DNA of 64,000 bases from an uncultured delta proteobacterium (GTDB lineage: Bacteria > Desulfobacterota > Desulfomonilia > UBA1062): NCBI GenBank assembly GCA_963798485.1, contig CAWCTR010000007.1, positions 578,043-642,042 of the forward strand, given 5' to 3'. The position numbers and the translations under genes were made by a program. The notes under the pieces were generated by a model, which saw only the letters and a list, made by a program, of their open reading frames with translations, did no database searches and had not been told where the DNA came from. Shown in pieces: positions 5,983 to 64,000 of the stretch (its first letter is position 1; every line of letters begins with the position of its first letter).

Positions 5983-6065
5983 ACCGAATGCGTATCGCTT
6001 CTTGAAAACCAGCCTCAATAGTGCAATACTTCATTGCCGATGCTATAAAAACGAGAGGAATTGCC

Positions 6066-8738: not shown

Positions 8739-8753
8739 GACCACGGTAAATAC

Positions 8754-26502: not shown

Positions 26503-26607
26503 GTAGGTTGGGTTGAACTTGTGAAACCCAACAACAAGACTTAAAATAGCATCCATTCAAATATTCAGATCTTGATGTGTTGGGTTTCGTTCCTCAACCC
26601 AACCTAC
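26503..26607. repeat. GTAG-type REPIN (inverted REP doublet)
   Basis: GTAGGTTGGGTTGAACTTGTGAAACCCAAC ... GTTGGGTTTCGTTCCTCAACCCAACCTAC. Confidence 0.75.
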
Positions 26608-38685: not shown

Positions 38686-39182
38686 TAGCCAAGACAGGCT
38701 CTGTGCTCACGGAATCCCAGATGAAGGCCTTGGAACGAGCCAAAGAAGAGAAAATCTCCCTTGGAGAGATAGAGACTGAGCATGTGGGGTACCTGGGAGC
38801 GCAGGACACTTACTATGTTGGCAACATCAAGGGAGTGGGCCGTATTTATCAGCAGACCTTCATAGACACGTATTCTTCAGTGGCCATGGCGAAGGTCTAT
38901 ACCAGCAAGCATCCCATCAATTCCGCTGATTTTCTCAATGATCGGGTTATTCCATTCTTCGATGAAAAGGGTGTGCATCTACTGAGGATCTTGACCGACC
39001 GTGGAACTGAATACTGCGGTAATCCCACTACCCATGAATACCAACTGTTCCTTGCCCTTAATGATATCGAACATACCAGGACAAGGGCAATGCGACCTCA
39101 ATCGAACGGGATCTGTGAGAGATTTCACAAGACAGTCGGGGATGAGTTCTACAGCATTGCTTTCCGGAGAAAGATCTATCTC
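38686..39182 (+). mobile_element. IS481-family transposase internal fragment (DDE core only)
   Basis: QDTYYVG, GRIYQQTFIDTYS, ILTDRGTEYCG, PQSNGICERF; no HTH, C-terminus or IRs seen. Confidence 0.85.
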
Positions 39183-39978
39183 ACAACTTAAATATCTCAG
39201 AGAAAAACACCTTCATATGCTCCCATGAACGTTTATCAGCCTTCTCGTTGTATGCAATGCCGCGAGAAGGCTCCGAGCCTGAGTCGGGGTTGGTGAAGCT
39301 GTGGACAGCCCCTCCGTAGCTGACCATCTGCCAGTCTACCTTTGCCTTGCGCATCTCATCCTGAAATGCGTTTACCTGCATAACAGGAACATTCGGATCA
39401 TCAGCGCCGTGGAGTACGAGCACCTTGGCCTTGATATTCCTGGCATCATCAGGGTTAGGGGTGTCGAGTCCCCCGTGGAAGCTTACTACGCCTGCAATAT
39501 CAGCACCGCTCCTGGCAAGCTCAAGTACTGTCGTACCTCCAAAACAATAACCGATTGCAGCAATCTTTCTCTTATCGGTAAGGCCATGATCCCTTAAAAC
39601 CTGTAACCCCGCATTAACGCGTTCGCGCAGAAGCTTGCGGTCGCCGCCTCTGAACTTTCCTGCACGTGCTCCAGCCTCGGCAGGATCTTTTGTGGAAAAA
39701 CCATTCCCGTAGATGTCCGCAGCAAAAGCAATGTAACCTAAAGACGCCACCTGTACTGTCCGCCTTTTGATATAATCGTTGAGTCCCCACCATTCATGGA
39801 CAAGGAGAACCGCCGGCCTCCTGCCCTTCAATGAATCATCATATGCCAGGTAGCCTACGAGTCGGACGTCGCCGTGTTTGTATGTGATCGCTTCCGTTCG
39901 TATGGCAGCAGAAGATGCAGAAGCCAGCGCTACTATTGATATGGCGCAACAAAAACCGGTTATCGACATACCCCTCAT
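39181..39978 (-). CDS. Dienelactone hydrolase family protein (secreted)
   Basis: Signal peptide; HEWWGLN, GYCFGG, SFHG, HSFT. Confidence 0.92.
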   Translation of the reverse strand: MRGMSITGFCCAISIVALASASSAAIRTEAITYKHGDVRLVGYLAYDDSLKGRRPAVLLVHEWWGLNDYIKRRTVQVASLGYIAFAADIYGNGFSTKDPAEAGARAGKFRGGDRKLLRERVNAGLQVLRDHGLTDKRKIAAIGYCFGGTTVLELARSGADIAGVVSFHGGLDTPNPDDARNIKAKVLVLHGADDPNVPVMQVNAFQDEMRKAKVDWQMVSYGGAVHSFTNPDSGSEPSRGIAYNEKADKRSWEHMKVFFSEIFKL

Positions 39979-47343: not shown

Positions 47344-48018
47344 GTGCGCCACGAAGGCGCGAAGAGGTAGTCTTTAAAGGCTACATTTGAGCAGCCATGC
47401 TGCATGGAAGATGAGGGGAGGCCCCTCGGGATCGGGTTACAGGATCAGATCCCAAACCGCCTGACGCTGCGTGGGGATAAGATCCCAGGTGGTGAGCGGT
47501 CCAGGAAAAGTCGAGGCAAGACCTCGGCAGGTGAGGACCAGGAAGGCGAACGAGAGTGAACCACTGATGAGCTGTCGAAAAGTTAAAGACGTCATCGAAA
47601 CCGGGCTCCTTTATCGGGTCCGGGACAGAGTCTGGGGGAAACCTGTTTACTGCCCAGATGGTGGCCGGCAGAAAGGTGGCGCGAGCCTGGTTTGGGCTTT
47701 CATGCGGAACGTGGGAACCTGGCGCTCTGATGCTAAGGGACAAGTCGAAGTGGAGGACCCATGAAGACGAGAGTACCGATGCAGAGCGCAGGGGCGGATC
47801 AGTCCGTAGTAGTGATGAAGTCCGGTAATGCGGATGGAGCGAAGGGGCTGAGCTGTCCGACCTTGTTCGTGAGTCAACCAGCAATGGGAGGAGCTTATGG
47901 ATAAGGTAAAGTCGTTATGTTCTTTACAGACGACTGGACGGCAGGAGCCGGATGAGGTGAGAGTCTCACGTCCGGTTCTGTGAGGGCCTGGGGGTGAGAT
48001 TCCCCCGGGCTACTCGAC
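47344..48018 (+). mobile_element. ORF-less group II intron (bacterial class D-like), 675 nt
   Basis: 5' GTGCG; DV GAGCCGGATGAGGTGAGAGTCTCACGTCCGGTTC; DVI ending CTACTCGAC; only the SD and first codons (MDKVKS) of an IEP remain. Confidence 0.88.
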
Positions 48019-49547: not shown

Positions 49548-49550
49548 TGA

Positions 49551-49623
49551 TGGGCCATCCGGGGCTCGAACCTGGAACCTACTGATTAAGAGTCAGTTGC
49601 TCTACCAGTTGAGCTAATGGCCC
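49551..49623 (-). tRNA. tRNA-Lys (CTT)
   Basis: GGGCCATTAGCTCAACTGGTAGAGCAACTGACTCTTAATCAGTAGGTTCCAGGTTCGAGCCCCGGATGGCCCA cloverleaf. Confidence 0.95.
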
Positions 49624-49634
49624 ATATCCATCTT

Positions 49635-49683
49635 TGGTACGCCCGGGGCGACTCGAACGCCCGACCTGCGGATTCGAAGTCCG
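49635..49683 (-). repeat. 3' fragment of tRNA-Arg(TCG) = att core bounding an integrated element
   Basis: CGGACTTCGAATCCG...GTTCGAGTCGCCCCGGGCGTACCA: anticodon arm to CCA present, 5' acceptor strand and D arm absent. Confidence 0.88.
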
Positions 49684-50049
49684 AAAAATCAAAAAAACAA
49701 ACCCCTCTATCTTATGTCTGATTTCCCGTAAGATCTTAATTTAAAATTAATTTATGCATTCCATCTATTCCCTTACGTTCTATCTGTTTCCTTGCGTTCC
49801 CTTGGATTCTATCACAATATTATCACAGCTAAAGCGTAGGTTTTTGAACCGCGAACCCTTACGCTATTTTATGCACCACCCACATGTGCACTCCCACATT
49901 TAGCACTGAGTACCAGTCTGGTTGGCACTGAAAATACACTGCTGGACCTTCCCGGTCCAGAATCTGTCTTGCTTGAAGATCGTATTCCTCACAGTATTTT
50001 TAAAGAAAATACCGGGGCGAAGCCCCGGCGACTCAGGGGGGTAGGGGGG

Positions 50050-50916
50050 TTACCCCTGCCCATCCTTATCGTCTTGCTGACCGATTATGTGATTGACTGC
50101 CTTCTGTGCCTGAGCTGCGGCCAGGACAACAAGTCTTGAATCCTTTCTGATCGTGTCCCTCCATCCCTGGATATATGCCGCTGAGTTCTCAAGGGTGGCA
50201 TGAGCAATGCCGGTGATCGCGCACAGGTAGGCAGCTCCCATCTCCGCTATAAGCTCTTCACGGGCGTAGTTCTTCGATCCGAAAGAAGCCGGTGCTGAAA
50301 GGGTTTCACGATTGAGCCGAGAGGCTGAGCCTGTGGCGTGGGTCAACTCATGATAAAGGGTGCTATAATACTCTTCCGGGTTTACAAATGCGGCCTTACT
50401 CGGCATCTTCACCAGGTCTTCAATCGGGTTGTAGCAGGCCTTGATAAATCCATGCTTTATCTCAGGCCTTCCCTGGAAACCGTTCACAATGGCCTCGGCC
50501 TCTTCTATGGGGTTGGAATGGGCTTCTTCCGGCTGGTCAGGGTAGGTTATCCCTTCGCACTGGAGAACATTGAATACCCGGTAGTACTTCAGGAAGGGTA
50601 TATTTTTCTTTTCCAGCGCACCCGTGCCCTCGTTGAGTTCCTCCACTTCCTTGAAGTTCCAGAAAACCACGATAGAGCTTTTTTCTCCCTTCTTGATGGT
50701 CCCTCCGAGGGTCTTGGTCTGGTTGAAGGTGAGCCAGTAAGGAGAGGCATAGCTGGAAGCAAGGAGCAACCATACATTGATCCCTCTATACTTCTTGCCT
50801 GTCATCAGGTTACGGGGAAGCAGGATCTTGCTGTTCCAGGGTTTTCTCCAGGGGATGACACCATTGCCCAGGTGCGTCAGGATTTGTTCGGTCACGATCT
50901 CGAATACGTTTGCCAT
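50050..50916 (-). CDS. ardC: ArdC-family anti-restriction ssDNA-binding / zincin-like protein
   Basis: IPWRKPW, YRGIN, WLTFNQ, VFNVLQ, HELTHATG, YAREELIAE. Confidence 0.92.
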   Translation of the reverse strand: MANVFEIVTEQILTHLGNGVIPWRKPWNSKILLPRNLMTGKKYRGINVWLLLASSYASPYWLTFNQTKTLGGTIKKGEKSSIVVFWNFKEVEELNEGTGALEKKNIPFLKYYRVFNVLQCEGITYPDQPEEAHSNPIEEAEAIVNGFQGRPEIKHGFIKACYNPIEDLVKMPSKAAFVNPEEYYSTLYHELTHATGSASRLNRETLSAPASFGSKNYAREELIAEMGAAYLCAITGIAHATLENSAAYIQGWRDTIRKDSRLVVLAAAQAQKAVNHIIGQQDDKDGQG

Positions 50917-51162
50917 TAGTCTTTCCCTCCTCTAAAAATCAATTTTTTTTCAACCCGTTCACTCCTGACTCATGGGTTGAGAAAAAATCGGAGATAAAAG
51001 ACCGCGAAGCATCCTTATAGGGAGCCCCTGGAACGTTGCAAGCAGCGTGACAACATGTTTTTGTTGGCACGATGCTTATAAAGCGAGAGGAAGGGGCCTC
51101 TGCGCTTTGATTAGATCCTTGATTGGAAAACACTTGCTTTTTATAAATCAATGGTCAATAAC

Positions 51163-51188
51163 ACCTATAGATATTACTAAGTATAGGT
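51163..51188. promoter_or_regulatory. Inverted repeat, probable AbiEi operator
   Basis: ACCTATA-N12-TATAGGT just upstream of abiEi. Confidence 0.55.
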
Positions 51189-51198
51189 AATTTTAATC

Positions 51199-51819
51199 AT
51201 GCAAAAACATAAAATGAATGAACCCGCATCCGATAAATCTAAACGGCTCATTAAAGAAAAAGGCGGTATAATTCGCACAACAGAAGCCCTGAAACTAGGA
51301 ATCCATTCCCGTACCCTTTATACTCTCAGGGACACCGGTGTTCTTGAAAAAATTTCACGTGGTGTATACCGTCTGGCAGAACAGAAACCGATATCAAATC
51401 CTGATCTCGTTACTATAGCAATAAGATTCCCAAAGGCGGTCATTTGTCTTGTATCCGCACTGGCATACCATGAAATAACTACTCAAGTACCGCATACAAT
51501 TTCTATTGCCATAGAAAAAGGTGCTGAATCACCCAGAATAGACTACCCCCCTGTATCTGTTCACCGCTTTTCGCGCGAAAGTCTTACCGCAGGCATAGAG
51601 GAGCATGAAATAGATGGCGTAATAGTCCGTATTTACAACCCTGAGAAAACTCTGGCTGACAGCTTCAAGTTCAGAAATAAAATTGGGATGGAGACTGTTC
51701 TTGAGGCACTGAAGCTCTATAAAACACGGAAGAAATTCAACCTTGAAGAACTGATCAAATACGCCCGAATCTGCCGAGTTGATAAAGTTATGAGGCCCTA
51801 TCTTGAGGTGACTGTATGA
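51199..51819 (+). CDS. abiEi: Type IV TA antitoxin, AbiEi family
   Basis: wHTH LEKISRGVY, ICLVSALAYH, YNPEKTLAD. Confidence 0.88.
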   Translation: MQKHKMNEPASDKSKRLIKEKGGIIRTTEALKLGIHSRTLYTLRDTGVLEKISRGVYRLAEQKPISNPDLVTIAIRFPKAVICLVSALAYHEITTQVPHTISIAIEKGAESPRIDYPPVSVHRFSRESLTAGIEEHEIDGVIVRIYNPEKTLADSFKFRNKIGMETVLEALKLYKTRKKFNLEELIKYARICRVDKVMRPYLEVTV

Positions 51820-52724
51820 GTCAGAAAGAAGTTAAGAATATAGCTCAATCTGTCAGACAACGCCTCCTGAACAGGGCAAAGGCAGAAATGCGACCATTCA
51901 GTGAGATGCTCCAATATTTTGCCATGGAGCGATTCCTTTACAGGCTGTCAAAGTCCCAACATGCTGACAGATTCATTCTCAAAGGCGCAATGATGCTCAA
52001 GGCTTGGGGTTCATCAGAATTCAGGCCGACAATGGATATAGATATGCTTGGGAAAACAAACAACGAAGAAACCAACCTCGCTACTCAGATAGAAGATATC
52101 CTTTCGTCTGATGTTGAACCGGATGGACTTATCTTCGACAAAACAAGCATCCAGACAGAACGAATTAATGAAGATGCAGATTATAAGGGTATTCGTATTC
52201 GATTCCTTGGAAAACTGGATTCCGCAAAGATAAGCATGCAGATAGATATCGGCTTTGGCGATATTGTATATCCCATGCCGGAAAGATCAGATCTGCCGAC
52301 CATGCTTGATTTCCCTGCTCCATGTCTTCTTTGTTATAGCCGCGAGAGTGCTATTGCTGAAAAGTTTGAAACGATGCTGAAACTCCGTGAACTGAATAGT
52401 CGAATGAAGGATTTTTATGACATCTGGCTACTTTCCCGCCAGTTCAGATTTGAAGGGAATGTGCTCACTGAAGCCATCAGGCTAACCCTTGAAAAAAGGG
52501 GAACTGACCTGCCTGATGAAATTTCTGCTTTTTCAGAAGAATTTGCCAAAATCAAGCAAGTGCAATGGATAGCCTTCCTGAAAAAACTCAAGCAGGAGCA
52601 CGTACCTGAGGATTTTTCAGAGATCGCAACAACTATAAAAAGCTTCCTTCTTCCTATTGCTATTACACTGAAATCTGTTTCAAAAGCTCCTACCCAATGG
52701 ACCCCACCTGGTCCATGGGAGTAA
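51816..52724 (+). CDS. abiEii: Type IV TA toxin, AbiEii nucleotidyltransferase
   Basis: ERFLYRLS, FILKGA, RPTMDID, AEKFE, SRMKDFYDI; ATGA-coupled to abiEi. Confidence 0.9.
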   Translation: MSQKEVKNIAQSVRQRLLNRAKAEMRPFSEMLQYFAMERFLYRLSKSQHADRFILKGAMMLKAWGSSEFRPTMDIDMLGKTNNEETNLATQIEDILSSDVEPDGLIFDKTSIQTERINEDADYKGIRIRFLGKLDSAKISMQIDIGFGDIVYPMPERSDLPTMLDFPAPCLLCYSRESAIAEKFETMLKLRELNSRMKDFYDIWLLSRQFRFEGNVLTEAIRLTLEKRGTDLPDEISAFSEEFAKIKQVQWIAFLKKLKQEHVPEDFSEIATTIKSFLLPIAITLKSVSKAPTQWTPPGPWE

Positions 52725-52734
52725 TTACTGAGAT

Positions 52735-55734
52735 CTATCTCTCAAAACCTGGACCTCTACTCTTCCCAATATCCTGGGTTAGGTTCTGTGCAATACTCTT
52801 ATTTTGAGCAAGTGTTATCTTATGGCCGTCAAAGGCTACATACCTTCCGGTCTGCATCTGATCGTATTGCTTATTATAGGGGACCATGTACTGAACCCCT
52901 TTTGACTCGATCTTGGCATACTTATTCTCGCCAACCGCCTCTATTCCCGTAAAATATCCTTCAACTGCTCTTTCTCTGGCAAATTCCACGTGGAGACCAT
53001 GGGCTTCCATACGCTCACAGTAATTAAATTCCGACTTATTAAGCTGCTGGTCATATTTTGAAACTCTTTTCTGTTCTTGTCCTTCCTGAGAAATCTGATT
53101 CTGCTTCTCTTTCTCGATGGTTTTACTCCTCACGTCTTCCATCTTCTGGCCGTCATACTCAACCTGACGGAATTTACTCATCTGATCGTATTCCTTGTCA
53201 TAGGGCACCAGGTAACGCACTCCCTTTGTTGGTTCGGCATGGGTATCGATCACGGCATACTTTCTGCCATCGACTTCCTTCACTCCCATATAGTTTCCTT
53301 CCACTGACTTATCCTTGGGGAACTCTACCTGGATTCCCTTCTGTTGCTGCTGTTGACGATACTCTTCCTGTACTCTCAGGTGGAGCTTCTCCTCGATTCT
53401 GCTGTACTTATCCTGGTATTTCTGAGGAAGCCCTTTATCTCTCTCTTCAAGACGCTTCACTGCATCCCGCTTTATTTCCTCATACCCTCTTATCTTCTCC
53501 ATCTTGATGAATCGGTCATCTATCTCAACGCCCCTTGGTAAGCCATAGTCTACGATAAGACCCTTGGGCTGCTCTCTGCCCATGACCTTTTGCAGATCTT
53601 GAAAGTCCTTGAACTCTTCTTTGGCGTAATACATGGTTACATCTTCTCTATGCCTGCTCATGGCAACGTAGGCGGTGTGTTTATCAAAGTGCCTTGAGCC
53701 CAAAACAAAGGTACGGTCGATTGTCGATCCTTGTGTCTTATGGACCGTGGCTGCATATCCGTGGTCGAAGTCCCGGTACATGGTGGTATCAATAGCTACC
53801 CTGTCGCCCTTGTCGAGCTTGACTGCCATGACCCCCCTGCTGATACTCTCCACCGTCCCAAGGGAACCATTCCTCACACCCAAAGAATGCTCGTTCCGCA
53901 GGAAGATGATCCGGTCACCGGTGCTGAAAGTCCTCTCCCCTTTCTCGGTCATGAAGGTATATCCGGCTCCCCTTAGTTCTCCATGTAACTTTCTGTACTG
54001 CCTAGCCCCCTGGTTCAGTTCCGCTACATCTCTGTTTGTGTAGGCCATCATGAGGCTCGTCCCATGGTAGTGTTTATGTTCTGCCTGGTGATCAGCCCAC
54101 TCTTTCAATAACTGCTCCTTGGCCTCTTCCCTGGTCGGGAGTTCCTTGATGTGTCCGTGGTCGTGGTACATTTCAAGGGCCTTCTCCGTCTGTTCCCTTT
54201 TTCCTGAGAACTCTATTGTGGCCTCCTTCTGCCAATCAACCTTCTGCCTTCGTACTTCGGCAAGCTCAACATAGCCGGTCTTCTGGATTATCCCCCGGAA
54301 AGAACCTCCCGCCTCAATGGACTGGAGCTGTTCATTGTCTCCGACCAGGATCACCTTTGTTCTTGACTCATGGGCATACTCAAGGACCTGGTGCATCTGC
54401 CTAGTGCCCACCATACCGGCCTCGTCGATCACCAGGATCTCATCTCGATGGAGCTGGTTACGGTCATTGCTCCAGTCTTCGAGTTGCTTGTAGATGGTCG
54501 TGCTTTCTATCCCGCTTTCGTTCTGAAGACCTTCTGCTGCTATCCCTGAGAGGGCAAGGCCTCTGACCTTGTACCCTTCCGCCTCGTATGCTTCCCGTAC
54601 AGCACCAAGGGTATAACTCTTGCCTGTTCCAGCACGTCCGATCATGACGGCGATATCGCCGTTCTCTATAATTGTCTGGAAGGCCTTCTGCTGTTCATCA
54701 CTCATGGTGTAATTTGCGGCTGTCTGATCGATGATCTCATTCTTTACCTGGTGTCCATGGGAAGTCTTCATCGCTTGTGCGGCATCGAGCATGGCCTTTT
54801 CGTTCATCATCATGGTGCGGGTAGAGAAGAGGTCTTCGCCTTTCTCATTCTTGCCGATCTTCATAAGCTCGGGACTGTTCTCAAGAGCACTGAATACCCG
54901 GTTGAACTGATCCGCGTCCGCACTATACCGGAATGCAAAATCCATGATGTCTTCCCGCTTGAACACGGCATCATAATGCCCTACATGCTTCAACGCTTTC
55001 TCAGGATCGTTGATAATCCGATCTCCATTCTCGCGGCATATCCTCTGGTACTCTTCAAGTTTATCGAGGCCTCTTGTATCCTGGAGGTGGAGATATCCCT
55101 TTGGCAGGTATTTATAGATTCCTTGACCGAGGGTAAGCTTAGGCTCTAGATCAATACCTCTGTCTGCATAGCTCCTATGGTCAACCTGGATATCATGACC
55201 GGCTTCCAGCAAATGCCGGTTTTGTACAACCGCCCACTCCTCACGCCACTTAAGCAGATGAGCTTTATCGTTCCATGATCTTTCCTTTTGTCCGAATCCA
55301 TCTGAGGTAACTTCACGCATGGTAAGCATGATATGGACGTGCGGGTTTTTCTCGCTTTTGTGGATGCAGATATCGGCTATCATCCCCTTATCCACGAACT
55401 GCGTCTGTGCGTATTCCCGCACGAGCGCAATCTGTTGATTGAGGTTCAGCTCTTTAGGGAGAGAGAGTTCAACTTCACGTGCAAGCTGGGCGTCCTTTCG
55501 CTTCTCTTTTCTCTCGGCCTCGTTCCAGAGGGTTTGACGATCTTTCAATATCTCGGGAGCATTTTCCGGGAGAAGGATTTCTGCATGGGCAAGGTCTTTC
55601 TTCTTTGAATAGTCGAACTCCATTCCCTGACGCTCATCATAGAGCTTATCGCGTGAACGGTATGCAGCCGCAGCTACCGAGCTACGCCCGGAGCCTCTGC
55701 TGATAACCTTAACATCGATGTGATAGCACGCCAT
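52735..55734 (-). CDS. traA: Ti-type TraA: MOBQ relaxase fused to RecD-like SF1 helicase
   Basis: AAAAYRS (catalytic Tyr25), CIH...PHVH His triad; GRAGTGKS, IDEAGM, YAATVHKTQG, YVAMSRH. Confidence 0.93.
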   Translation of the reverse strand: MACYHIDVKVISRGSGRSSVAAAAYRSRDKLYDERQGMEFDYSKKKDLAHAEILLPENAPEILKDRQTLWNEAERKEKRKDAQLAREVELSLPKELNLNQQIALVREYAQTQFVDKGMIADICIHKSEKNPHVHIMLTMREVTSDGFGQKERSWNDKAHLLKWREEWAVVQNRHLLEAGHDIQVDHRSYADRGIDLEPKLTLGQGIYKYLPKGYLHLQDTRGLDKLEEYQRICRENGDRIINDPEKALKHVGHYDAVFKREDIMDFAFRYSADADQFNRVFSALENSPELMKIGKNEKGEDLFSTRTMMMNEKAMLDAAQAMKTSHGHQVKNEIIDQTAANYTMSDEQQKAFQTIIENGDIAVMIGRAGTGKSYTLGAVREAYEAEGYKVRGLALSGIAAEGLQNESGIESTTIYKQLEDWSNDRNQLHRDEILVIDEAGMVGTRQMHQVLEYAHESRTKVILVGDNEQLQSIEAGGSFRGIIQKTGYVELAEVRRQKVDWQKEATIEFSGKREQTEKALEMYHDHGHIKELPTREEAKEQLLKEWADHQAEHKHYHGTSLMMAYTNRDVAELNQGARQYRKLHGELRGAGYTFMTEKGERTFSTGDRIIFLRNEHSLGVRNGSLGTVESISRGVMAVKLDKGDRVAIDTTMYRDFDHGYAATVHKTQGSTIDRTFVLGSRHFDKHTAYVAMSRHREDVTMYYAKEEFKDFQDLQKVMGREQPKGLIVDYGLPRGVEIDDRFIKMEKIRGYEEIKRDAVKRLEERDKGLPQKYQDKYSRIEEKLHLRVQEEYRQQQQQKGIQVEFPKDKSVEGNYMGVKEVDGRKYAVIDTHAEPTKGVRYLVPYDKEYDQMSKFRQVEYDGQKMEDVRSKTIEKEKQNQISQEGQEQKRVSKYDQQLNKSEFNYCERMEAHGLHVEFARERAVEGYFTGIEAVGENKYAKIESKGVQYMVPYNKQYDQMQTGRYVAFDGHKITLAQNKSIAQNLTQDIGKSRGPGFER

Positions 55735-55737
55735 AAG

Positions 55738-56676
55738 CTAGTTGTTTTCCTCTTCAACTTTTTGAATGGAGTACAGATCCTCGCCCTTTTTACTTTTCCC
55801 GGTGAGAATGAGATCCTGGCAGTTCGAGAGAGCTTGCACGACTTGCTTATATTGTTCCGTATCGGCACTATGATATTTGGCAAACTTATCGATATCTCTT
55901 CTTTTGAAAACCTCTGCTCGATGCCTGAGAAGTTTTAAGGCCCTTCCAGGTTCTTCGATAATCCTTTCCCCATTTTCTCTTCGTATTCTCTGGTGGTCTT
56001 CAAGCCGGTCAAGTCCTCTGGTGCTTTTAAGAAAATCTCCATCCCTGGTAATATATTTTGACGCATATCCAAGCTTGACTTGAGGTTCAAGATCGATTCC
56101 TCTCTCAACATAACTCCGGTGGTCTACCCTGACATCATAGCCTGCTTCTTCCAACTTCATGTTCTGGATATTCGCCCATTCCTCCCGCCACTTAAATATA
56201 TAGGTTCTGTCGCTCCAGGATCTCTCCTTTTGTCCGAATCCTTCCCCGGTGAATTTCCGCATGGTAAGCATGATTGTAGCGTGAGGATTCGACTCTTTTG
56301 ATATGATGCCTATGTCAGCAATCATTCCCCTATCAACGAAGCTTGCCTGTACGAATTCCCGTACAAGCTCAATCTGCTGCTTAAGGGTCAGTTCCATAGG
56401 AATTGAAACCTCAATAAGCCGGGCAAGCTGAGAATCTTTTCGCTTTTCTCCTCTCTCGACCTCATTCCAGAGGGTTTGCCGATCGAGAAATCTCTCAGGG
56501 ACATTTTCTGGAATTAATATCTCTGAATACGCCAGGTCGGTAAATTGGGAATACCTGTGCGTCTTCCCCAATCTTTCATCGTAGAGTGTTTCTCTTGCAC
56601 GCCATGCTGCTGAAGCGACTGCGCTTTTGCCATCTGATCTTCCAATTTTGCTGATATTTAAATGATAAATAGCCAT
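55738..56676 (-). CDS. MobA/MobL-family relaxase paralog lacking catalytic residues
   Basis: Colinear with TraA aa ~1-305 but ASAAWRA (Y25W) and GIISKESNPHATIML (two of three His lost). Confidence 0.85.
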   Translation of the reverse strand: MAIYHLNISKIGRSDGKSAVASAAWRARETLYDERLGKTHRYSQFTDLAYSEILIPENVPERFLDRQTLWNEVERGEKRKDSQLARLIEVSIPMELTLKQQIELVREFVQASFVDRGMIADIGIISKESNPHATIMLTMRKFTGEGFGQKERSWSDRTYIFKWREEWANIQNMKLEEAGYDVRVDHRSYVERGIDLEPQVKLGYASKYITRDGDFLKSTRGLDRLEDHQRIRRENGERIIEEPGRALKLLRHRAEVFKRRDIDKFAKYHSADTEQYKQVVQALSNCQDLILTGKSKKGEDLYSIQKVEEENN

Positions 56677-57638: not shown

Positions 57639-57703
57639 GTACTCAGGCATGAATAATGTGTAATACAAATGTGAACATCTAGGAATGAGATTTATGTTGA
57701 GTA

Positions 57704-59975
57704 ACCGGGTAGGTCGGGGGCGTTACCGCCCCGTTCCCCCCTCAGAACCGTACGTGATAGTTTCCCATCATACGGCTCAAGCATCTTTGAAGGCAGCTCC
57801 TGTGGAGCGGCCCGACTGTGATACCTCCTAAGCGGCCTTCATCGCTCGAATCTGTCGAGCAGAGAGGGCCGCAAGCAGTTTGCTTTCCTTTTCATGCCTG
57901 CGCTGCCAGTAGTAAGCAGCGTATTCCGGCAAGTAAGGGTTCGCGTCTGCTTTGATCTTCCTATGCCTTCGAATGCCTATGGTGCATACTCTGAGAACCT
58001 GATATACTTTTACTCGACCTTTGGCATCTTTCGAGCGTACTGCAAATATATGTTTTAGACCCGAGGCTGTCCAGTATTCCTTGATCAGCCATTTCACGGG
58101 CTTGCTCTGATGACGCCTGTGCACCATACGCCACAACTGTTCGAAGACATAGGTGTCGATGCGACAGAAGGCATCCGACGCTGCCACGTGGCGGTGGTAA
58201 TTGGCCCAGCCTCGGAGTGTCTGATTCAACTCCTTGATCAGGACCGGCATCGGCGCGCTGACGTGTTTGCGGATAATCGTTCCCAACTTCCGTACGAGGG
58301 CGAGGACTCCCTCTTTTGCCGGAGTGATGTGCAGCACCCGTCCATGCTTTCGGAAGGTTTGCCCGAGGAACGTAAACCCGTTCTTGATGTAGGTGATCGC
58401 AGTCTTGGCTGGTGATAAGGATAGACCGCGTTCCGCAAGAAACATCTCCACCGCAGGCTTGATGTCTTCTTCCAACAGACGTTTTGATTTGCCTGTTATG
58501 ATGAAGTCATCGGCATAGCGGATGAAGTTGACTCGGCTTCGACGGGGGACTGCACGTTGGATGACCTCCTCCAGACCGTCGAGCGTCATGTTTGCAATGG
58601 TCGGGCTGATTATCCCTCCTTGCGGTGTTCCTCTGCGGGTCGGATACGTTTTGTTGTCTTCCACGTACCCTGCCTTCAGCCACTTGTACAGCACGGTTTT
58701 ATCCATCGGAAGGTTTCTGAGAATCCAGTCATGGGAGATGTTGTCGTAACATCCTTCGATGTCTCCCTCCATCACCCAGGTTGCCGAGTTCGGCTTGGAC
58801 AGGGCATTGAATGCTGCTGCTACTGCATCAGCACACGACCGGCCTTCACGGAAGCCGTAGGAATTCCTGTCGGCGGAAGTTTCCGCTACCGGGGAGAGCG
58901 CCAGCTTGTACAGTGCCTGCATTGCCCGATCCTGCATGGTTGGGATCGATAGAGGTCTTTTCTTTCCATTCTTCTTCGGGATGTAAATCCGCCTGAGCGG
59001 CTGAGGCTTGTAGCCACGTCTGCGCAGGCTGAACGCAGCCCGCCATTTGGCTCGGGCGCTTCGCCACAAGACGCCGTCAACGCCAGGAGTATTCTTCCCC
59101 TTGTTGGAGGTCGCCCGTTTCACAGCCATCAGCTTGGCGTATAACGAGCGGGTTAACAGATAGTGAAGCACCCTTACCTTGTTCCACCTGTTTCCCTTCA
59201 CAGCCTGTGCGATACGTACCTGCAGCCTTCTGACCTGACGCATTAGGACTTTCCAGTCAATGGATTTCCATCTCTTAGCGTCAGCGATGAGTGCACCAGC
59301 TTTATCGGCCGTCTTTTGCCTTCCCATCTCCAAAGGTTCTCCAAGCTCTCTCGCACCAAGACACCGGTCGGACGTCTGCACGCTCTCGTCGGGGCTGCTG
59401 CCACCGGCTTTCGCGTCGGGCCATGTCTCATGCCCTATCCGTAGTATTACCTACGGCCTTTGCTTCTTCCGACTTCTCTTCCCCGCCGCTCCGACAGCAC
59501 GCCTTGCGGTAATGCCTGCCCGGTATTGCACCGGGCGAAATAGCGGGGTTACTGCGTTCTACATAATCGACCATCACGGACAACGTAGGCGGGACTTGGA
59601 CGCCGGTGGCTTATTAGCGGCCCCGTGCAGGCACGTTAACAACCTGCAACCTCACACCACACGTGCAAACACATAAGAAGCACGTCTTAGACCTATTAAT
59701 CCCTGTAGGTCCGTTGCTCGTCTGACGGCGCGTGAAATCCTTTGCCTGTTCTCGCCCTATTGCCCTGACCCTAGCCCTTAACCGAGCGGGATTCTCGGAT
59801 GGGATTCCACCTCACGGCTTCCTCCCGGTTCGGTACATTGTCGGACGGGCTTCACACCCGCTGCACAACGCACAGCACGCATGCCGTCCTAGGGTACTGG
59901 CGGAGACACACCAGGTGATTTCCAGTTTCTCTATCCTCCTATAATCACATTCGATTATGCAACTTCGCATCGCGA
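57704..59975 (-). mobile_element. Group II intron (CL/chloroplast-like class)
   Basis: DV GAGCCGTATGATGGGAAACTATCACGTACGGTTC; DVI ending CCTACCCGGT; 5' end TCGCGATGCGAAG (boundaries +/- 1-2 nt). Confidence 0.85.
57828..59327 (-). CDS. ltrA: Group II intron reverse transcriptase/maturase without HNH endonuclease
   Basis: RVT_N WKSIDW..VRRLQVRI, TPGVDG, GTPQGGIISP, RYADD, X domain LRGWANY; ends after ANPY. Confidence 0.92.
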   Translation of the reverse strand: MGRQKTADKAGALIADAKRWKSIDWKVLMRQVRRLQVRIAQAVKGNRWNKVRVLHYLLTRSLYAKLMAVKRATSNKGKNTPGVDGVLWRSARAKWRAAFSLRRRGYKPQPLRRIYIPKKNGKKRPLSIPTMQDRAMQALYKLALSPVAETSADRNSYGFREGRSCADAVAAAFNALSKPNSATWVMEGDIEGCYDNISHDWILRNLPMDKTVLYKWLKAGYVEDNKTYPTRRGTPQGGIISPTIANMTLDGLEEVIQRAVPRRSRVNFIRYADDFIITGKSKRLLEEDIKPAVEMFLAERGLSLSPAKTAITYIKNGFTFLGQTFRKHGRVLHITPAKEGVLALVRKLGTIIRKHVSAPMPVLIKELNQTLRGWANYHRHVAASDAFCRIDTYVFEQLWRMVHRRHQSKPVKWLIKEYWTASGLKHIFAVRSKDAKGRVKVYQVLRVCTIGIRRHRKIKADANPYLPEYAAYYWQRRHEKESKLLAALSARQIRAMKAA

Positions 59976-60045
59976 TTAACGTTAAAGCTCACTGGCTGCA
60001 ATGGAGCAAAGGGGAAATATCGACCGGTGCAGCGCCTTGTTAGCT
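59974..60045 (-). repeat. attC site 1 (72 bp)
   Basis: R'' AGCTAAC (contains stop codon), L'' GCTGCAC with extrahelical G, L' GTGAGC, R' GTTAATC. Confidence 0.85.
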
Positions 60046-61047
60046 TGTCACTTCAATTTCAAACCCAATCTTCTTGGATTGTTCAATGAACTTCTCGATA
60101 TTCCCTTTACCCCACTGGTTTGAAATTGCATATTGCGTGGAGTCTGGAAACTCAATTATTTCATTTTCCCTAAGAAAATGGCGATAAATACCCTGCCTGC
60201 CGTAAATCCCATGAGCATCACTTACAGGAATAAACATTCCTCCACTTCTAATTTCTTGAGGGAAAGCAATTAATAGCTCAGTTAGATTGTTTGGCTTGTT
60301 CTCTGCTATCCAGTGTTGAATGACAGCCAACACCAACTTTCTTTTATTGTAAGCATTGCCTTGAAAAAAATAGCGCGTGTAATCTTTTGATGATTTCCTA
60401 GCCTCTCTCCTTTCTTCTGACTGTTGCTTAATCTTTACCTGGTAACTTTCCGCTTCTGGTAAAGGAATTATCTGTTGAACATCTATAAGTATTTGACTTT
60501 GGTATTTGTAGGGTATGAATCGAACGCATCGAATATCAATATTTCTTTCATTAAGCCACATCACTGATGTCGTTAGCTCTTTGGAAAAATCAGATGAAAC
60601 CAAAACGATGCGAACATCCAATGCAAAATCGTCCTCTTGTGGTTCCTCCCAGCCCAGAAATTCTAGCAAACTATTTTCTGCATTTAGCTCAACACCTATT
60701 GAATTTAGATATTTTTGATAAATTTCAACTGCACGGCTGAAAGTGAGAGTAGATACCATTGCTGCATACCGCAGTGCTTGCAGCTCCATATTCTCTCCGG
60801 TTTCAGTTCGTTTTAACTCAATGACAACCAGATTCCCCTCTTTATCGACTGCCAGTAAATCAATTCGGCGCTGAGAACCCGACCACTCTGCGAACTCTTC
60901 TGATATTACGAGGCAGTTGGGAGCTACGACAGCAATTTGGTGCTTGAGTGCTAACTGCAAATGATGACGTTCAAGTATTCCTTCACTGTTAAAAGTTGTG
61001 GTATCAACTTTCTGCAACGAATTGTCATTAAAACTATAAATTGCCAT
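60040..61047 (-). CDS. Cassette: NucS/DUF91-like PD-(D/E)XK endonuclease with distinct C-terminal domain
   Basis: RIDLLAVDKEGNLVVIELKR...QALRYA. Confidence 0.78.
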   Translation of the reverse strand: MAIYSFNDNSLQKVDTTTFNSEGILERHHLQLALKHQIAVVAPNCLVISEEFAEWSGSQRRIDLLAVDKEGNLVVIELKRTETGENMELQALRYAAMVSTLTFSRAVEIYQKYLNSIGVELNAENSLLEFLGWEEPQEDDFALDVRIVLVSSDFSKELTTSVMWLNERNIDIRCVRFIPYKYQSQILIDVQQIIPLPEAESYQVKIKQQSEERREARKSSKDYTRYFFQGNAYNKRKLVLAVIQHWIAENKPNNLTELLIAFPQEIRSGGMFIPVSDAHGIYGRQGIYRHFLRENEIIEFPDSTQYAISNQWGKGNIEKFIEQSKKIGFEIEVTS

Positions 61048-61068
61048 GTTCCCCCCGCTTCTTCGTCG

Positions 61069-61100
61069 ACCTAACGTCCGCCTGGATGCCTTTGTTCGAC
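61069..61100 (-). repeat. Truncated attC site 2 (32 bp)
   Basis: GTCGAAC-AAAGGCATCCAGGCGGAC-GTTAGGT: R'' and L'' present, L' and terminal loop missing. Confidence 0.72.
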
Positions 61101-61104
61101 CCTA

Positions 61105-61950
61105 CTACTTACTCGTCCAGTTTCGGTTCAACCCCATTTCCCGGCTTTGTAGTTTGGACTGCCATCGACCTTCCATCCTTAGTATGTCCTTTGTTGTCGC
61201 AGACGTTCCTGCAACTTCCAGAATCGAAATCTGATAATCACTTGGATCGCGACTCTTGAGACCAAGGTTGCCGCCATGACCTGTGTGGACGTAGTCTTGC
61301 CAGCGGCCCCAAAATCCTTCCTCACCAGTCGCAGATCCAACATACTGCTCCTTTGTCTTAGGACATGTAAGCAAGTAGATTCCACGAGAAGATTGGAGGG
61401 CTGTAATCCAGTTCTTTGGGACATTGTTGAGCTTTGATAGCGCTTGGATGAAGTTCAAAAAGCCCGGGAAAGTGGGTTCCTGAAATGCCATGCGCAACTC
61501 AGTGATGGGCTTATCGTTCCGTTCAGCATATTGGACCCACGCGAGTGCTCCCGGTCCCCAATTGATAAATAACCTCCCAATGAGATCACTTAGCGTATTC
61601 TGTATCTTGAGGTCATAGACGTCACAGCTTCCGGCTTCGTCAATACCTTCCATATGAGGTCTGGGGGTGTCTTTTTTTAAAAGTCCTTGATACTGCACAG
61701 CATAAAGTCCAGCAAACATCGTATCATCGTTGAGATTGACAATGAACACTGCCCAGTACGGTGCAGTGAATTTCTTTCGATTCGGGATGCTTTGGTTGGA
61801 TTGGTAAAGCTCAAACTGTGGGCGGTTGTCACGCCACAATTCGTAAGGTGTATGGCCCCTCGTTGCTTTTTTGTCTTTGTGTCGGATAAGGCGAACATCA
61901 GCCAGTGGTAACCCAGCTTCACGCAGGATTGTATTAAACATAATAGACAT
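61105..61950 (-). CDS. Cassette: GIY-YIG nuclease-family protein
   Basis: GIYLL...QYVGSA, GRWQDY, MEGRWQ..L, GLNRN; extended N-terminal domain. Confidence 0.85.
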   Translation of the reverse strand: MSIMFNTILREAGLPLADVRLIRHKDKKATRGHTPYELWRDNRPQFELYQSNQSIPNRKKFTAPYWAVFIVNLNDDTMFAGLYAVQYQGLLKKDTPRPHMEGIDEAGSCDVYDLKIQNTLSDLIGRLFINWGPGALAWVQYAERNDKPITELRMAFQEPTFPGFLNFIQALSKLNNVPKNWITALQSSRGIYLLTCPKTKEQYVGSATGEEGFWGRWQDYVHTGHGGNLGLKSRDPSDYQISILEVAGTSATTKDILRMEGRWQSKLQSREMGLNRNWTSK

Positions 61951-61972
61951 TACACTAACCTCACGTTAATTG

Positions 61973-62033
61973 GTCGAACAGCAGGCATCAGCGCCGCGGC
62001 TCTACAGCGTCCACCTGGATGCCTTTATTGACC
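61973..62033 (-). repeat. attC site 3 (61 bp)
   Basis: R'' GGTCAAT (variant), L'' GCATCCAG, L' CTGATGC, R' GTTCGAC. Confidence 0.8.
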
Positions 62034-63066
62034 TGTAGATCATCTGGTGCTTCCCCTGCCGTTTCTTCAAGAACCTGTTGAATTAAGCCTCGGTACTCAG
62101 AAACAACGTGGTAGTTGTCTTTGGTCTCTCCATGGGCTCCACCTGTCTCGAATTCGATTGCCTGCCGCAGGTGAGGGTTAGACTTCTTAGTTAAAAACTG
62201 AGAAATGTTGCTGAGGTAACGCCCGGCTTGACCTATATCATTGCCTATACCCGCTTCAACAAGGCCTTGCTTCACATTTTCGCGACTATAGGTGCGATCC
62301 TCCTGTATAACAATTTCAAGGAAAGCGCGAAACCGTGGTGTCAAATCGCTTGGTCGAATGAGGGACTGGATGATTCGCTCCTTGAGCTGATCTGCAGGAA
62401 GATTGGAAGCCTCTAGTGAGAAGGAACTTTTTCCAGGAAGTTTCTGTTCTTTCACTTTAACTTCTTTCTTCTGGATGTAGTCCCTTGCTTCGGGTAGGGG
62501 GATAATGATGTCAGCATTTATGAAAATATTTCCCTGTTGGTCAACATGAGGTGTCACGCGGATGCACTCGATGTCGATTATCGCGTCACGCAACCAGAGT
62601 ACCGCCGAAATTACTTCAGAATTGAACTCTTTCGAAACCAATACAATTCTTTGTTTCTCGTTAAGGTCTTCAGGTTCGCAGTCTATGAACTCCTCAATCT
62701 TAACCTGAGCATCATCAACATCCGTGCCAAGGTACTCGGCAAAATACTTGTAGATTTCGTCTTGAGAAAAACTCGAACAGTATGAAGCGTACTTGATTGC
62801 CTGCCACTCAACGTCTGAGCCAGAATCATCCCTCTTGAGCTCAATGATCACAAGTGCGCCCTCCTTGTCCACCGCCAACAAATCAAGACGCCTTCCTGAT
62901 GGAAGTATTAGTTCTTTAGCGATGACCAGTAAGTCCTCACCAAGGATTTCTGGTGTCCCATTGATCCATTCCTGAATATCAAACCGTTCTTTCAGGTTCA
63001 GAAGCACCTAATGATGTCACGGGGATCTTCTACGAGCTTCTCGTTTTCAATGTCCACCTTATACAT
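61988..63066 (-). CDS. Cassette: second NucS/DUF91-like endonuclease; 5' end frame-broken
   Basis: RLDLLAVDKEGALVIIELKR..QAIKYA; AGGAGG RBS + ATG at 63066 (MYKVDIEN) is out of frame with ORF 61988-63007. Confidence 0.75.
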
Positions 63067-63093
63067 TCATTCCCTCCTGTATCAGTGTTGGCA

Positions 63094-63155
63094 GGCCAAT
63101 CCAAAGTCACCGTGAGCCGGATTTATCGGCGATCCGGTGCAGCGACTCGCCGGCA
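63094..63155 (-). repeat. Degenerate attC site 4
   Basis: GCTGCACCGGATCGCCGATAAATCCGGCTCACGGTGA core; R boxes damaged (TGCCGGC / ATTGGCC). Confidence 0.6.
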
Positions 63156-63159
63156 TTTT

Positions 63160-63720
63160 CTCTTTCTATTATTCTGACCCCCTTGCATCGTCTTCCGCTA
63201 TTCCGGGAGAATAGTCACTCCCCTTCTGGTGAAGCCCCCTGTATTTACAAGGTCCTGCTATTATTTCTTGTTCGACCGCCTCGTCTTTTGCCTCATCTGG
63301 ATTTCTTCGCGCCCAATAGATTGTCTCTTAGCCAGCAGTCCAAACTGTTTGGCTTAGGATGGTCTATTCTTCTGCATTCTTTCAGAATCCTTGTATCATG
63401 TAATTCCTTGATCTGTTGTTCTTATATGTTCTTTGAGGTGTTAAATCGAATGAATTGTTCCCATATGGTAGATTGATAGATGGCATGTTTGTCCTTTCTA
63501 TTTGATTCATTTACCTTGGTTTGCAGAAGAAACAGTTCTCTCAATTCTGGCAAGACGCGTTGTTCGGCGAATGTCAATGCAGCGGCATAGGTCTCGTGGT
63601 ATTCATAGTTCCCTGACGGTACTGGTGTTGCCCTCGTGCTTTTTAATTTGATTGCATCCATCACAATTGAATGGTCATATGCGGATTGGCTGAACGTTTT
63701 TATACTGTGGCTAACTCCAT
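63160..63720 (-). pseudogene. Cassette: hypothetical gene with multiple frame breaks
   Basis: AAGGAG RBS and ATG after attC5 R'; open fragments incl. 63422-63760; no recognised motif. Confidence 0.4.
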
Positions 63721-63742
63721 CTCCACATCTCCTTAATAGCAT

Positions 63743-63799
63743 GCCTAACGTACAGATCACCTGCGGCTATAAGCCGTCCAGTGGATTAGCGGGTTAAGC
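63743..63799 (-). repeat. attC site 5 (57 bp)
   Basis: R'' GCTTAAC, L'' ATCCAC, loop CGGCTTATAGCCG, L' GTGAT, R' GTTAGGC. Confidence 0.8.
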
Positions 63800-63811
63800 T
63801 TTTTCCATACC

Positions 63812-64000
63812 TCAAGCAAGCTTTCTATTATCAAGTTGGTCTAGAAAGGCCTCTTTGGTACTTATGGTAAGCTAGTTGCAGGTATTATAGCGGTAATTGC
63901 TCGCCAAGCATGCCACATAAATCTTCCTAATATGTCAAAGTCATCGATTGTTGCACCATGATGAACAAAGGAGGATCGGATTCTGTATAAGCATCTCTAA
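63812..64000 (-). CDS. Cassette (partial, frame-broken): C-terminus of Apea-like HEPN protein
   Basis: YRIRSSFVHHG carries the HEPN RxxxxH motif; ends ..LDQLDNRKLA* just before attC5. Confidence 0.6.

Follow-up and report, generated by a model that had tools for sequence, protein, structure and literature searches.

The last 4 kb of a 64,000-nucleotide stretch of DNA from an uncultured delta proteobacterium (GTDB lineage Bacteria; Desulfobacterota; Desulfomonilia; UBA1062; assembly GCA_963798485.1, contig CAWCTR010000007.1, positions 578,043 to 642,042) carry four minus-strand open reading frames (ORFs) in a row, which are separated by short spacers and encode proteins of 335, 281, 339 and 112 residues (59.9-64 kb; the whole 64-kb stretch is referred to as the window, and all coordinates are given within it). 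We conclude, with a probability of about 0.7, that we see here the promoter-distal end of a partly decayed cassette array of the integron type, which lies on the minus strand. Three attC-like sites are retained at the ends of ORFs, all in one orientation; two further junctions appear to have decayed; and relatives of the third gene, ORF3, are found in other contigs as a gene joined to an attC site. Three of the ORFs have matches among profiles of defence nucleases, either known or candidate.

Identification of the attC sites

Read in coding-strand order, an attC site carries the R'' box RYYYAAC and the R' box GTTRRRY at its two ends. The L box, located 4-7 nt from the R boxes, is a short stem with one extrahelical base on its L'' arm, and the total length is about 57-141 nt. 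All attC sites that we inspected in plasmid R46 (class 1) and in the loci related to the array bear the AAC...GTT core. The related loci are eight contig loci with relatives of ORF3 (L001-L008); two plasmid loci, L010 and L011, contain homologues of ORF1.

Two attC covariance models were constructed, neither of which contains any sequence from the window. R1 consists of five sites of a single attC family (that of the ORF3 relatives), while R2 consists of six attC sites of the related loci and three of R46 (aadA1, orfD and oxa2), its R-box/L-box structure being set by hand. MAFFT alignments (A1 and A2) mis-aligned some of the sites and were left out of the models. A scan of the full window with R2 on both strands (128 kb of strand, filters off, E<=10) produced five matches, the top three of which are site E (63743-63799, 57 nt; 18.1 bits, E=0.069), site A (59974-60045, 72 nt; 15.0 bits, E=0.4) and site C (61973-62033, 61 nt; 14.7 bits, E=0.47), all on the minus strand. 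Each of them starts at, or just past, the end of a minus-strand ORF and is read R'' first. No reverse-strand match was obtained at these three sites at E<=10, as expected of oriented attC sites; the forward and reverse scores of true attC sites were 68.2 versus 14.5 bits and 55.4 versus 11.7 bits. The fifth match (59075-59109, minus strand) has an E-value of 8.7. The fourth (26526-26585, minus strand; 11.6 bits, E=2.6) is an intergenic palindrome, ACCCAAC...GTTGGGT, following the phosphoenolpyruvate (PEP) carboxykinase gene; it also passes the strict geometry scan described below and, since it is isolated, is taken as a chance look-alike or a terminator.

The three retained sites share the expected architecture with individual variations (bulged base in brackets). 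Site A, the last attC of the array, has the R'' box AGCTAAC, which overlaps the stop codon of the preceding ORF, the R' box GTTAATC, and an L box GCT[G]CAC / GTGAGC of 3 bp, a single bulge and 3 bp, with spacers of 5 and 6 nt. Site E, the best-scoring, has the R'' box GCTTAAC, the R' box GTTAGGC and the L box ATC[C]AC / GTGAT (3+3 with one G-T pair, spacers 6/6). In site C, the R'' box is GGTCAAT, with AAT for the expected AAC (one core mismatch), and is paired with the R' box GTTCGAC and the L box CATC[C]AG / CTGATG (5+2, spacers 4/5); its first 46 nt double as the 3' end of ORF3 (15 codons and the stop). Site C has the architecture of the attC sites that follow the ORF3 relatives, with box spacing and bulged C preserved and two L-box pairs changed on both sides. 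On the top strand, the bulged base is G in site A and C in sites C and E and in all control sites.

The controls for R2 were R46 (50 kb), L001-L008 (67.9 kb), L010-L011 (15 kb) and the rest of the window. Nothing in them reached 14.7 bits other than true attC sites on their own strand; the highest remaining scores were 14.5 (a true attC on the reverse strand), 14.1 (next to a cassette remnant in L007) and 14.0 bits. As control matches reach 14.0-14.5 bits, sites A and C are each marginal when taken alone, and what carries the case is where the sites lie and that they share an orientation: all three are within 3.8 kb, point the same way and are located at ORF ends. We estimate from the control rate, 1-3 matches of at least 14 bits per ~386 kb of strand, that only ~0.01-0.03 such matches would be expected in the array.

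A geometry scan gave a complementary view. In its strict form, which demands exact AAC/GTT cores, 4-7 nt spacers and a stem whose L'' arm has a single bulge, the scan recovered three of the four R46 attC sites with one extra match in 50 kb, and in the window it returned site A and one other. Sites C and E pass when the rules are relaxed once each. Only the strict and intermediate settings were used; the loosest is unspecific, with 382 matches in the window. An earlier motif-plus-energy scan was dropped, having returned mostly palindromes inside genes and missed true attC sites. A same-strand geometry match lies within -50 to +110 nt of the stop codon in 4 of 61 ORFs, two of them among the 5 ORFs of the region and two among the 56 others; site E escapes this count because its end is 119 nt from the stop. 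The hairpins of the array are not ordinary terminators, since none of the five intrinsic-terminator-like sites found in the window is on the minus strand; the array hairpins also lack T-runs.

Probable decayed junctions

The original prediction had placed an attC-like site directly after each of five minus-strand ORFs. Three of these places (63743-63799, 59974-60045 and 61973-62033) are upheld by R2, whereas 61069-61100 and the stretch 63008-63421 are not.

The first of the failed junctions, site B (61069-61100, minus strand), scores 8.7 bits with its core deleted and is absent from the whole-window matches at E<=10. Its R'' box, GTCGAAC, and the start of an L'' arm are followed directly by the R' box GTTAGGT, so that the 3' arm is missing. 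The left half of site B is a 20/22 copy of the left half of site C (direct repeat D3, 61075-61096 and 62008-62029, 91%). From this layout, we read site B as an attC that has lost its 3' arm, a loss that would have fused the UzuA-like and ORF1 cassettes. GTTCGACC occupies 61094-61101 on the plus strand, where its reverse complement, GGTCGAAC, is found at 61972-61979. The R'/R'' complementarity earlier quoted as 8-mers for the GIY-YIG cassette is therefore real: the opening TTCGACC of the UzuA unit is exactly complementary to the closing GGTCGAA.

The second, site D (63094-63139, minus strand), lies in the 414-nt spacer between ORF4 and ORF3 (63008-63421). The best R2 match in this spacer is a 15-nt mini-palindrome of 7.8 bits. 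Site D itself shows no recognisable R'' box and has neither R box in register. After a hairpin at 63108-63139 comes ATTGGCC (63094-63100), which, by eye, matches the place of GTTGGCC upstream of the gene copy in L001. Judged from these features, site D looks like a decayed junction. Sites A and D also have 14 nt of similar sequence (repeat D10), which we discounted as being at chance level in 4.1 kb, where about one is expected by our estimate. The same spacer holds a third copy of GTTCGACC (63270-63277) and a 15-nt palindrome, GCCAAACAGTTTGGA (63339-63353, minus strand), in which R2 aligns an R'' box abutting an R' box. Both may be remains of further collapsed attC sites.

A mobile cassette family related to ORF3

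The relatives of ORF3 were collected in one scan of genome contigs, which gave eight loci, mostly on contigs of metagenome-assembled genomes (MAGs) labelled Desulfobacterota or similar. In five loci, they are 66-79% identical to ORF3 (best segment). The gene is followed in five loci (L002, L004, L005, L006 and L007) by an imperfect palindrome of 55-58 nt with AAC...GTT boxes and a bulged stem. In pairwise comparisons, these attC sites are identical at 42-52 of 49-52 nt up to the G of the R' box, and at only 9-17 of the next 40 nt; neighbouring genes vary between the loci. The clearest pair is L006 and L005, identical over 200/200 nt of the gene and 52/52 nt of the attC and then at 16/40. Since similarity stops exactly at the G|TT crossover point in five contigs, the ORF3 gene family is, on this comparative evidence, one that moves as a true cassette, with gene and attC carried together into varied contexts.

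Some of these copies have unexpected labels. The identical 200 and 52 nt belong to L006:7672-8760, labelled Smithellaceae, and L005:1-654, labelled Bacteroidetes, and near-identical copies of the gene and its attC occur in contigs labelled Oscillospiraceae, Desulfocicer and Desulfatiglandales (L004, L002 and L007 are also among the loci concerned). This pattern suggests either that the unit was recently exchanged between distant lineages or that MAG contigs were mis-binned. The Smithellaceae locus also contains a small attC cluster of its own (L006:5054-8760), with R2 sites at 7181-7243 and 8703-8760 and a third, seen by eye only, at 7615-7661. The cluster follows genes for an EcoRI-type methylase, a GmrSD-HNH protein, a 113-residue ORF and a PDC-S11 protein, and lies between GGDEF genes with no integrase nearby.

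Cassette genes and predicted defence nucleases

ORF1 (60040-61047, minus strand, 335 residues) is a full-length PDC-S11 ("Madara"-type) protein with an N-terminal NucS-like PD-(D/E)xK nuclease domain. It matches PADLOC model PDLC04909 (PDC-S11) with E=2.7e-121 over residues 1-331, covering profile positions 1-342 of 347, and contains the motif IDLLAVD...IELK, the first Asp of which is residue 63 when counted in the translation. The Pfam NucS_C match of ORF1 (E=8e-4) is under the curated cut-off.

The second gene (61105-61950, minus strand, 281 residues) encodes a UzuA-like protein (Uzume) with a C-terminal GIY-YIG nuclease domain. It matches the 278-position PADLOC model PDLC03973 over its full length (E=1.1e-83, residues 1-277). 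The Pfam GIY-YIG match is just E=0.023 (residues 190-269), with GIY...YVG visible in the C-terminal domain. Its plasmid homologues, the closest of which are 48-58% identical, are annotated just as "GIY-YIG nuclease family protein". By blastn, the region 59900-64000 as a whole is covered by plasmid sequences for just 13% of its length, at 65% identity.

ORF3 (61988-63007, minus strand, 339 residues) combines a PDC-S11-type nuclease domain with a different C-terminal half. Its match to the PADLOC PDC-S11 model (E=2.5e-65) is restricted to residues 3-189 and profile positions 22-216; the C-terminal half falls outside this match, and the C-terminal sensor of Madara is not recognised in it. A search with this half in the protein atlas returned nothing usable, the best score of 0.85 being a lead only. 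ORF1 and ORF3 are 36% identical across ~230 residues, and both match Pfam NucS_C and MmcB-like.

The start of ORF3 is irregular. Its first ~22 codons (MYKVDIENEKL...; 62998-63066) are in a different frame from the rest (61988-63007), and its relatives of 76-79% identity begin MYRVDI.... A one-base indel located between two stop codons, TAG at 63008-63010 and TGA at 62998-63000, would account for the change of frame; near its start, ORF3 contains either a frameshift or an assembly error. Genuine decay is indistinguishable here from indels of the assembly because ilvD is also split in the window: this housekeeping gene (dihydroxy-acid dehydratase, 6021-7725) is frameshifted into overlapping ORFs at 6021-7001 and 6928-7725, as a result of assembly indels or as a pseudogene.

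ORF4 (63422-63760, minus strand, up to 112 residues) is a doubtful gene. It has no Pfam or PADLOC match, no homologue of near length in a search of 5.8 billion clusters and no usable match in the protein atlas. At the window edge, an open stretch of 44 residues (63862-63996, minus strand), directly preceded by a TAG codon, ends in ...YRIRSSFVHHG.... It contains RSSFVH, which fits the R-x(4-6)-H motif, and is possibly the C-terminus of a HEPN-like protein; this fragment has no Pfam match at E<=10.

The earlier view that four of the five cassettes encode nucleases thus stands in part. The two NucS-like proteins (ORF1 and ORF3) and the GIY-YIG protein were borne out by the Pfam and PADLOC matches given above, and in each of these three ORFs the profile matched is that of a defence nuclease, known or candidate, whereas the HEPN cassette could not be confirmed.

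Model of the array

In the reading that we favour, the array would formerly have contained at least five cassettes, and two of its junctions would have decayed, B by losing its 3' arm and D by losing its R'' box; the units that could be mobilised now would be roughly ORF4 with ORF3, and UzuA with ORF1. Each cassette would constitute a single-gene nuclease defence. ORF1 would function in a Type IV-restriction-like manner, as proposed for Madara/PDC-S11 proteins, with the C-terminal sensor reading modified phage DNA and the NucS-like PD-(D/E)xK domain cutting it. ORF3 would be a nuclease of the ORF1 type with a different sensor, and the effector in UzuA would be a GIY-YIG nuclease. Given an IntI, supplied in cis from beyond 64 kb or in trans, recombination at G|TT between two attC sites or between attC and attI could still excise the two units and change their order. 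The array would ride on an island that carries a MOBQ/TraA relaxase, ArdC and AbiE, with which the defence genes could travel along, and a group II intron would have inserted just past the last attC.

Integron or CALIN

A complete integron has intI, which encodes a tyrosine recombinase with an IntI-specific insertion, beside the array, together with attI and Pc. A CALIN, as defined by Cury et al. 2016 and also in the methods of bioRxiv 10.1101/2024.07.02.601686, is a group of at least two neighbouring attC sites that has no integrase near it. We lean towards a CALIN or an inactive distal end, because two junctions have decayed, the R'' box of site C reads AAT and ORF3 is broken. For the first two of these reasons, and since three sites rather than five are retained, the "shufflable library" of the original prediction overstates the sequence.

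The main alternative is a complete, active integron whose intI, attI and Pc lie just beyond 64 kb, upstream of the array, and whose cassettes are still shuffled. The array does extend to the window edge with its best attC, site E, nearest that edge, its orientation is that expected for an intI at higher coordinates, and a mobilizable island is a fitting location for a mobile integron. Moreover, with cassettes on the minus strand intI is expected above 64 kb, so that the absence of an integrase has been seen on the low-coordinate side only. The decay of two of the five junctions, the AAT of site C and the frameshift in ORF3 are, however, signs of disuse, and no integrase accompanies the same cassette in any of the eight related loci. 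We consider an active integron possible, with the balance of these observations against it.

A more ambitious version, which we regard as rather speculative, sees in the array one end of a mobile integron that still works and is located on an integrative mobilizable element, the host being an anaerobic environmental bacterium. The cassettes of this integron, namely Uzume, a full-length Madara and the nuclease part of a Madara joined to a new sensor, would come from a pool that crosses distant lineages, and a group II intron other than a group IIC-attC intron would have homed to the top strand beside the terminal attC. If true, defence cassettes of integrons, studied so far in Vibrio and in clinical integrons, would be connected with the communities of anaerobic sediments or digesters, and a natural series of sensor-swapped Type IV-like nucleases would be available.

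Evidence against a cassette array

Several observations weigh against reading the region as an integron-type array at all. None of the 61 window ORFs matches an integrase model (NCBIfam, E<=1e-6), R46 IntI1 finds nothing better than E=4.2 in a tblastn search of the window, no attI is in view within the window, and an integrase is likewise missing from all eight loci related to ORF3. The E-values of the three sites are marginal (0.07-0.5), with a calibration that is rough by the tool's own statement, and a chance match of 14.0 bits lies inside a gene of L010. Since the training set of R2 included attC homologues of site C, this site is not a fully independent test. R1 gave no match at any of the five proposed sites at E<=10. 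The attC covariance-model check called for in the original prediction thus gives a divided picture: with our home-made R2, sites E, A and C head the window at E-values of 0.07-0.47 and B and D give no match at E<=10, and with R1 none of the sites is matched; as R1 recovers only two of the four R46 attC sites, we judge it too specific. Single-strand folding of six stretches covering the five proposed sites was no better than that of shuffled sequences (z from +0.21 to -1.50). Finally, plasmid homologues of ORF1 and UzuA occur without an integron context: R2 finds no attC match beside the gene in the ORF1-homologue loci L010 and L011, and in Vibrio tubiashii p123 the ORF1 homologue is in a BREX-linked gene cluster, three genes from brxL.

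These marginal scores, weak folds and non-integron homologues would also fit a simple defence islet of the mobilizable island, one that does not descend from an integron and whose hairpins are incidental. Such an islet does not explain why the top three matches in 128 kb of strand fall in one 4.1-kb stretch, on one strand and at ORF ends, given the small number expected there by chance, nor does it account for the textbook cassette boundary of the ORF3 family elsewhere. We therefore consider it improbable.

The Vibrio tubiashii locus (L010, p123, 72802-81794) is of separate interest in that its ORF1 homologue is clustered with brxL and with genes for a SMEK-domain protein, a RecB-like nuclease and a TrlF-like ATPase. 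This cluster echoes the BREX-Madara pairing reported for E. coli ECOR34.

Group II introns

A group II intron in the orientation of the cassettes (57701-59973, minus strand) directly follows the array. It is delineated by RF02012 (59774-59915), RF00029 (57704-57780) and a reverse transcriptase (RT)/maturase gene (57828-59381) with Pfam RVT_N, RVT_1 and GIIM domains. Its 5' end lies between 59916 and 59973, at most 58 nt past the R' box of site A; blastn of the intron region detected similarity in the RT gene only (64-67%), by which the exact intron ends are not fixed.

Group IIC-attC introns, which also carry an RT/maturase, are inserted in the attC bottom strand, opposite to cassette transcription (PMC3001079). 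The intron of the window resembles them in its location at the last attC of an array and differs in its strand: its RNA domains and RT are on the cassette strand, and it starts past the R' box, outside the attC. In being just downstream of an attC and in cassette orientation, it is similar to UHB.I2, an intron of class IIB (PMC7923331).

The proximity and shared orientation of the intron and site A, and the insertion of class IIC introns after stem-loops (PMC7923331), could be taken to mean that the hairpins are target or terminator structures of the intron rather than recombination sites, which is highly improbable given that there is one intron copy for three sites sharing R''/R' boxes that an intron target does not need, that the same type of hairpin travels with its gene in intron-free loci, and that T-runs are lacking at the sites.

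A second group II intron signature is present at 47413-48018 (plus strand), where RF01999 (D1-D4) and RF00029 (D5-D6) span ~600 nt with no RT gene inside. This intron looks ORF-less or degenerate.

Genomic context

The first 36 kb of the window are ordinary chromosome with a G+C content of 52-57%, containing polA, serC, the gene for a GTP-dependent PEP carboxykinase, ilvD and CoA-dehydratase/benzoyl-CoA-reductase-like genes. From ~36 kb onward, the G+C content falls to 44-50%. The low-G+C segment 36000-49500 contains a fragment of an IS481-family transposase gene (38703-39191), chrA and genes for a FilA-like pilus protein and a START-domain protein; because of this composition and gene content, the accessory region may begin well ahead of the tRNA gene described next.

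The island backbone adjoining the array (49549-56676) consists of tRNA-Lys(CTT) (49549-49624), the sole tRNA in the window, ArdC (50050-50916), AbiEi (51199-51819), AbiEii (51816-52724) and two MobA/MobL relaxase genes in tandem on the minus strand (52735-56676). The larger relaxase gene (52735-55734, minus strand) encodes a TraA/MOBQ relaxase-helicase of 999 residues. The other (55738-56676, minus strand), located 3 nt upstream, encodes a protein of 312 residues that has the N-terminal relaxase domain alone; the two relaxase domains are 58% identical. The proposed MOBQ element with AbiE and ArdC next to the array is thereby corroborated in all its components. The further claim of a tRNA island found no support: there is neither an island integrase nor a repeat of the tRNA-Lys end elsewhere in the 64-kb window, and integration at tRNA-Lys(CTT) is therefore not shown.

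Comparison with known systems

The region shares with CALIN and integron arrays the succession of co-oriented short ORFs, each followed by an imperfect palindrome of 57-72 nt with R''/R' boxes and a bulged L box, three of which are retained in 4 kb. It differs from them in its two decayed junctions and in the one R'' box with AAT, and the attC calls come from a home-made model rather than from that of IntegronFinder. Integrative mobilizable elements of the SGI1 type carry an integron. They are comparable to the present locus in having a cassette array on a mobilizable island; the cargo is defence genes here and resistance genes there.

Uzume has reportedly been described experimentally by Millman et al. 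in 2022. It is a single-gene GIY-YIG system (bioRxiv 10.1101/2024.10.26.620412), to which our UzuA-like protein corresponds in its full-length profile match and GIY...YVG motif, and from which it differs in its cassette context.

PDC-S11 has been renamed "Madara", a modification-dependent nuclease of E. coli ECOR34 that restricts T4 with modified cytosines and not unmodified T4; a D63A substitution in its NucS-like PD-(D/E)xK motif abolishes defence, and its C-terminal domain has an EVE-like fold (bioRxiv 10.64898/2026.09.05.749240). The full-length profile match and Asp63 of ORF1 agree with this description, and ORF3 shares the nuclease half. On the other hand, ORF1 is just ~45% identical to the E. 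coli-collection homologue, the C-terminal half of ORF3 is unrelated, and the gene in the window is in a cassette rather than beside BREX. A paralogous pair of nucleases with different C-terminal halves is convenient for testing the specificity of sensor domains.

That integron cassettes can encode phage defence, as the original prediction held, is reported in two preprints of 2024, one on mobile integrons (BRiCs; bioRxiv 10.1101/2024.07.02.601719) and one on sedentary chromosomal integrons (bioRxiv 10.1101/2024.07.02.601686), so that the storage of phage-defence genes in integrons is not new in principle. The main texts of both contain no mention of Uzume, and that of the sedentary-integron preprint none of PDC-S; their supplements may list Uzume or PDC-S11 cassettes. 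To these reports, the present locus adds Uzume and Madara/PDC-S11 in cassette form and an example of defence cassettes outside Vibrio and clinical integrons. It also offers a snapshot of array decay, in which the loss of an attC arm would fuse neighbouring cassettes, and a cassette type, that of ORF3, which looks recently exchanged among contigs assigned to very different lineages and could be traced in metagenomes. Compared with the BRiCs and sedentary-integron cassettes, the apparent host is an environmental anaerobe rather than a Vibrio or a clinical enterobacterium, and defence is here predicted from sequence. The likeness lies in the cargo, small and mostly single-gene systems with many nucleases among them, and in the occurrence of homologues outside integrons, where such systems also live according to the mobile-integron preprint (10.1101/2024.07.02.601719).

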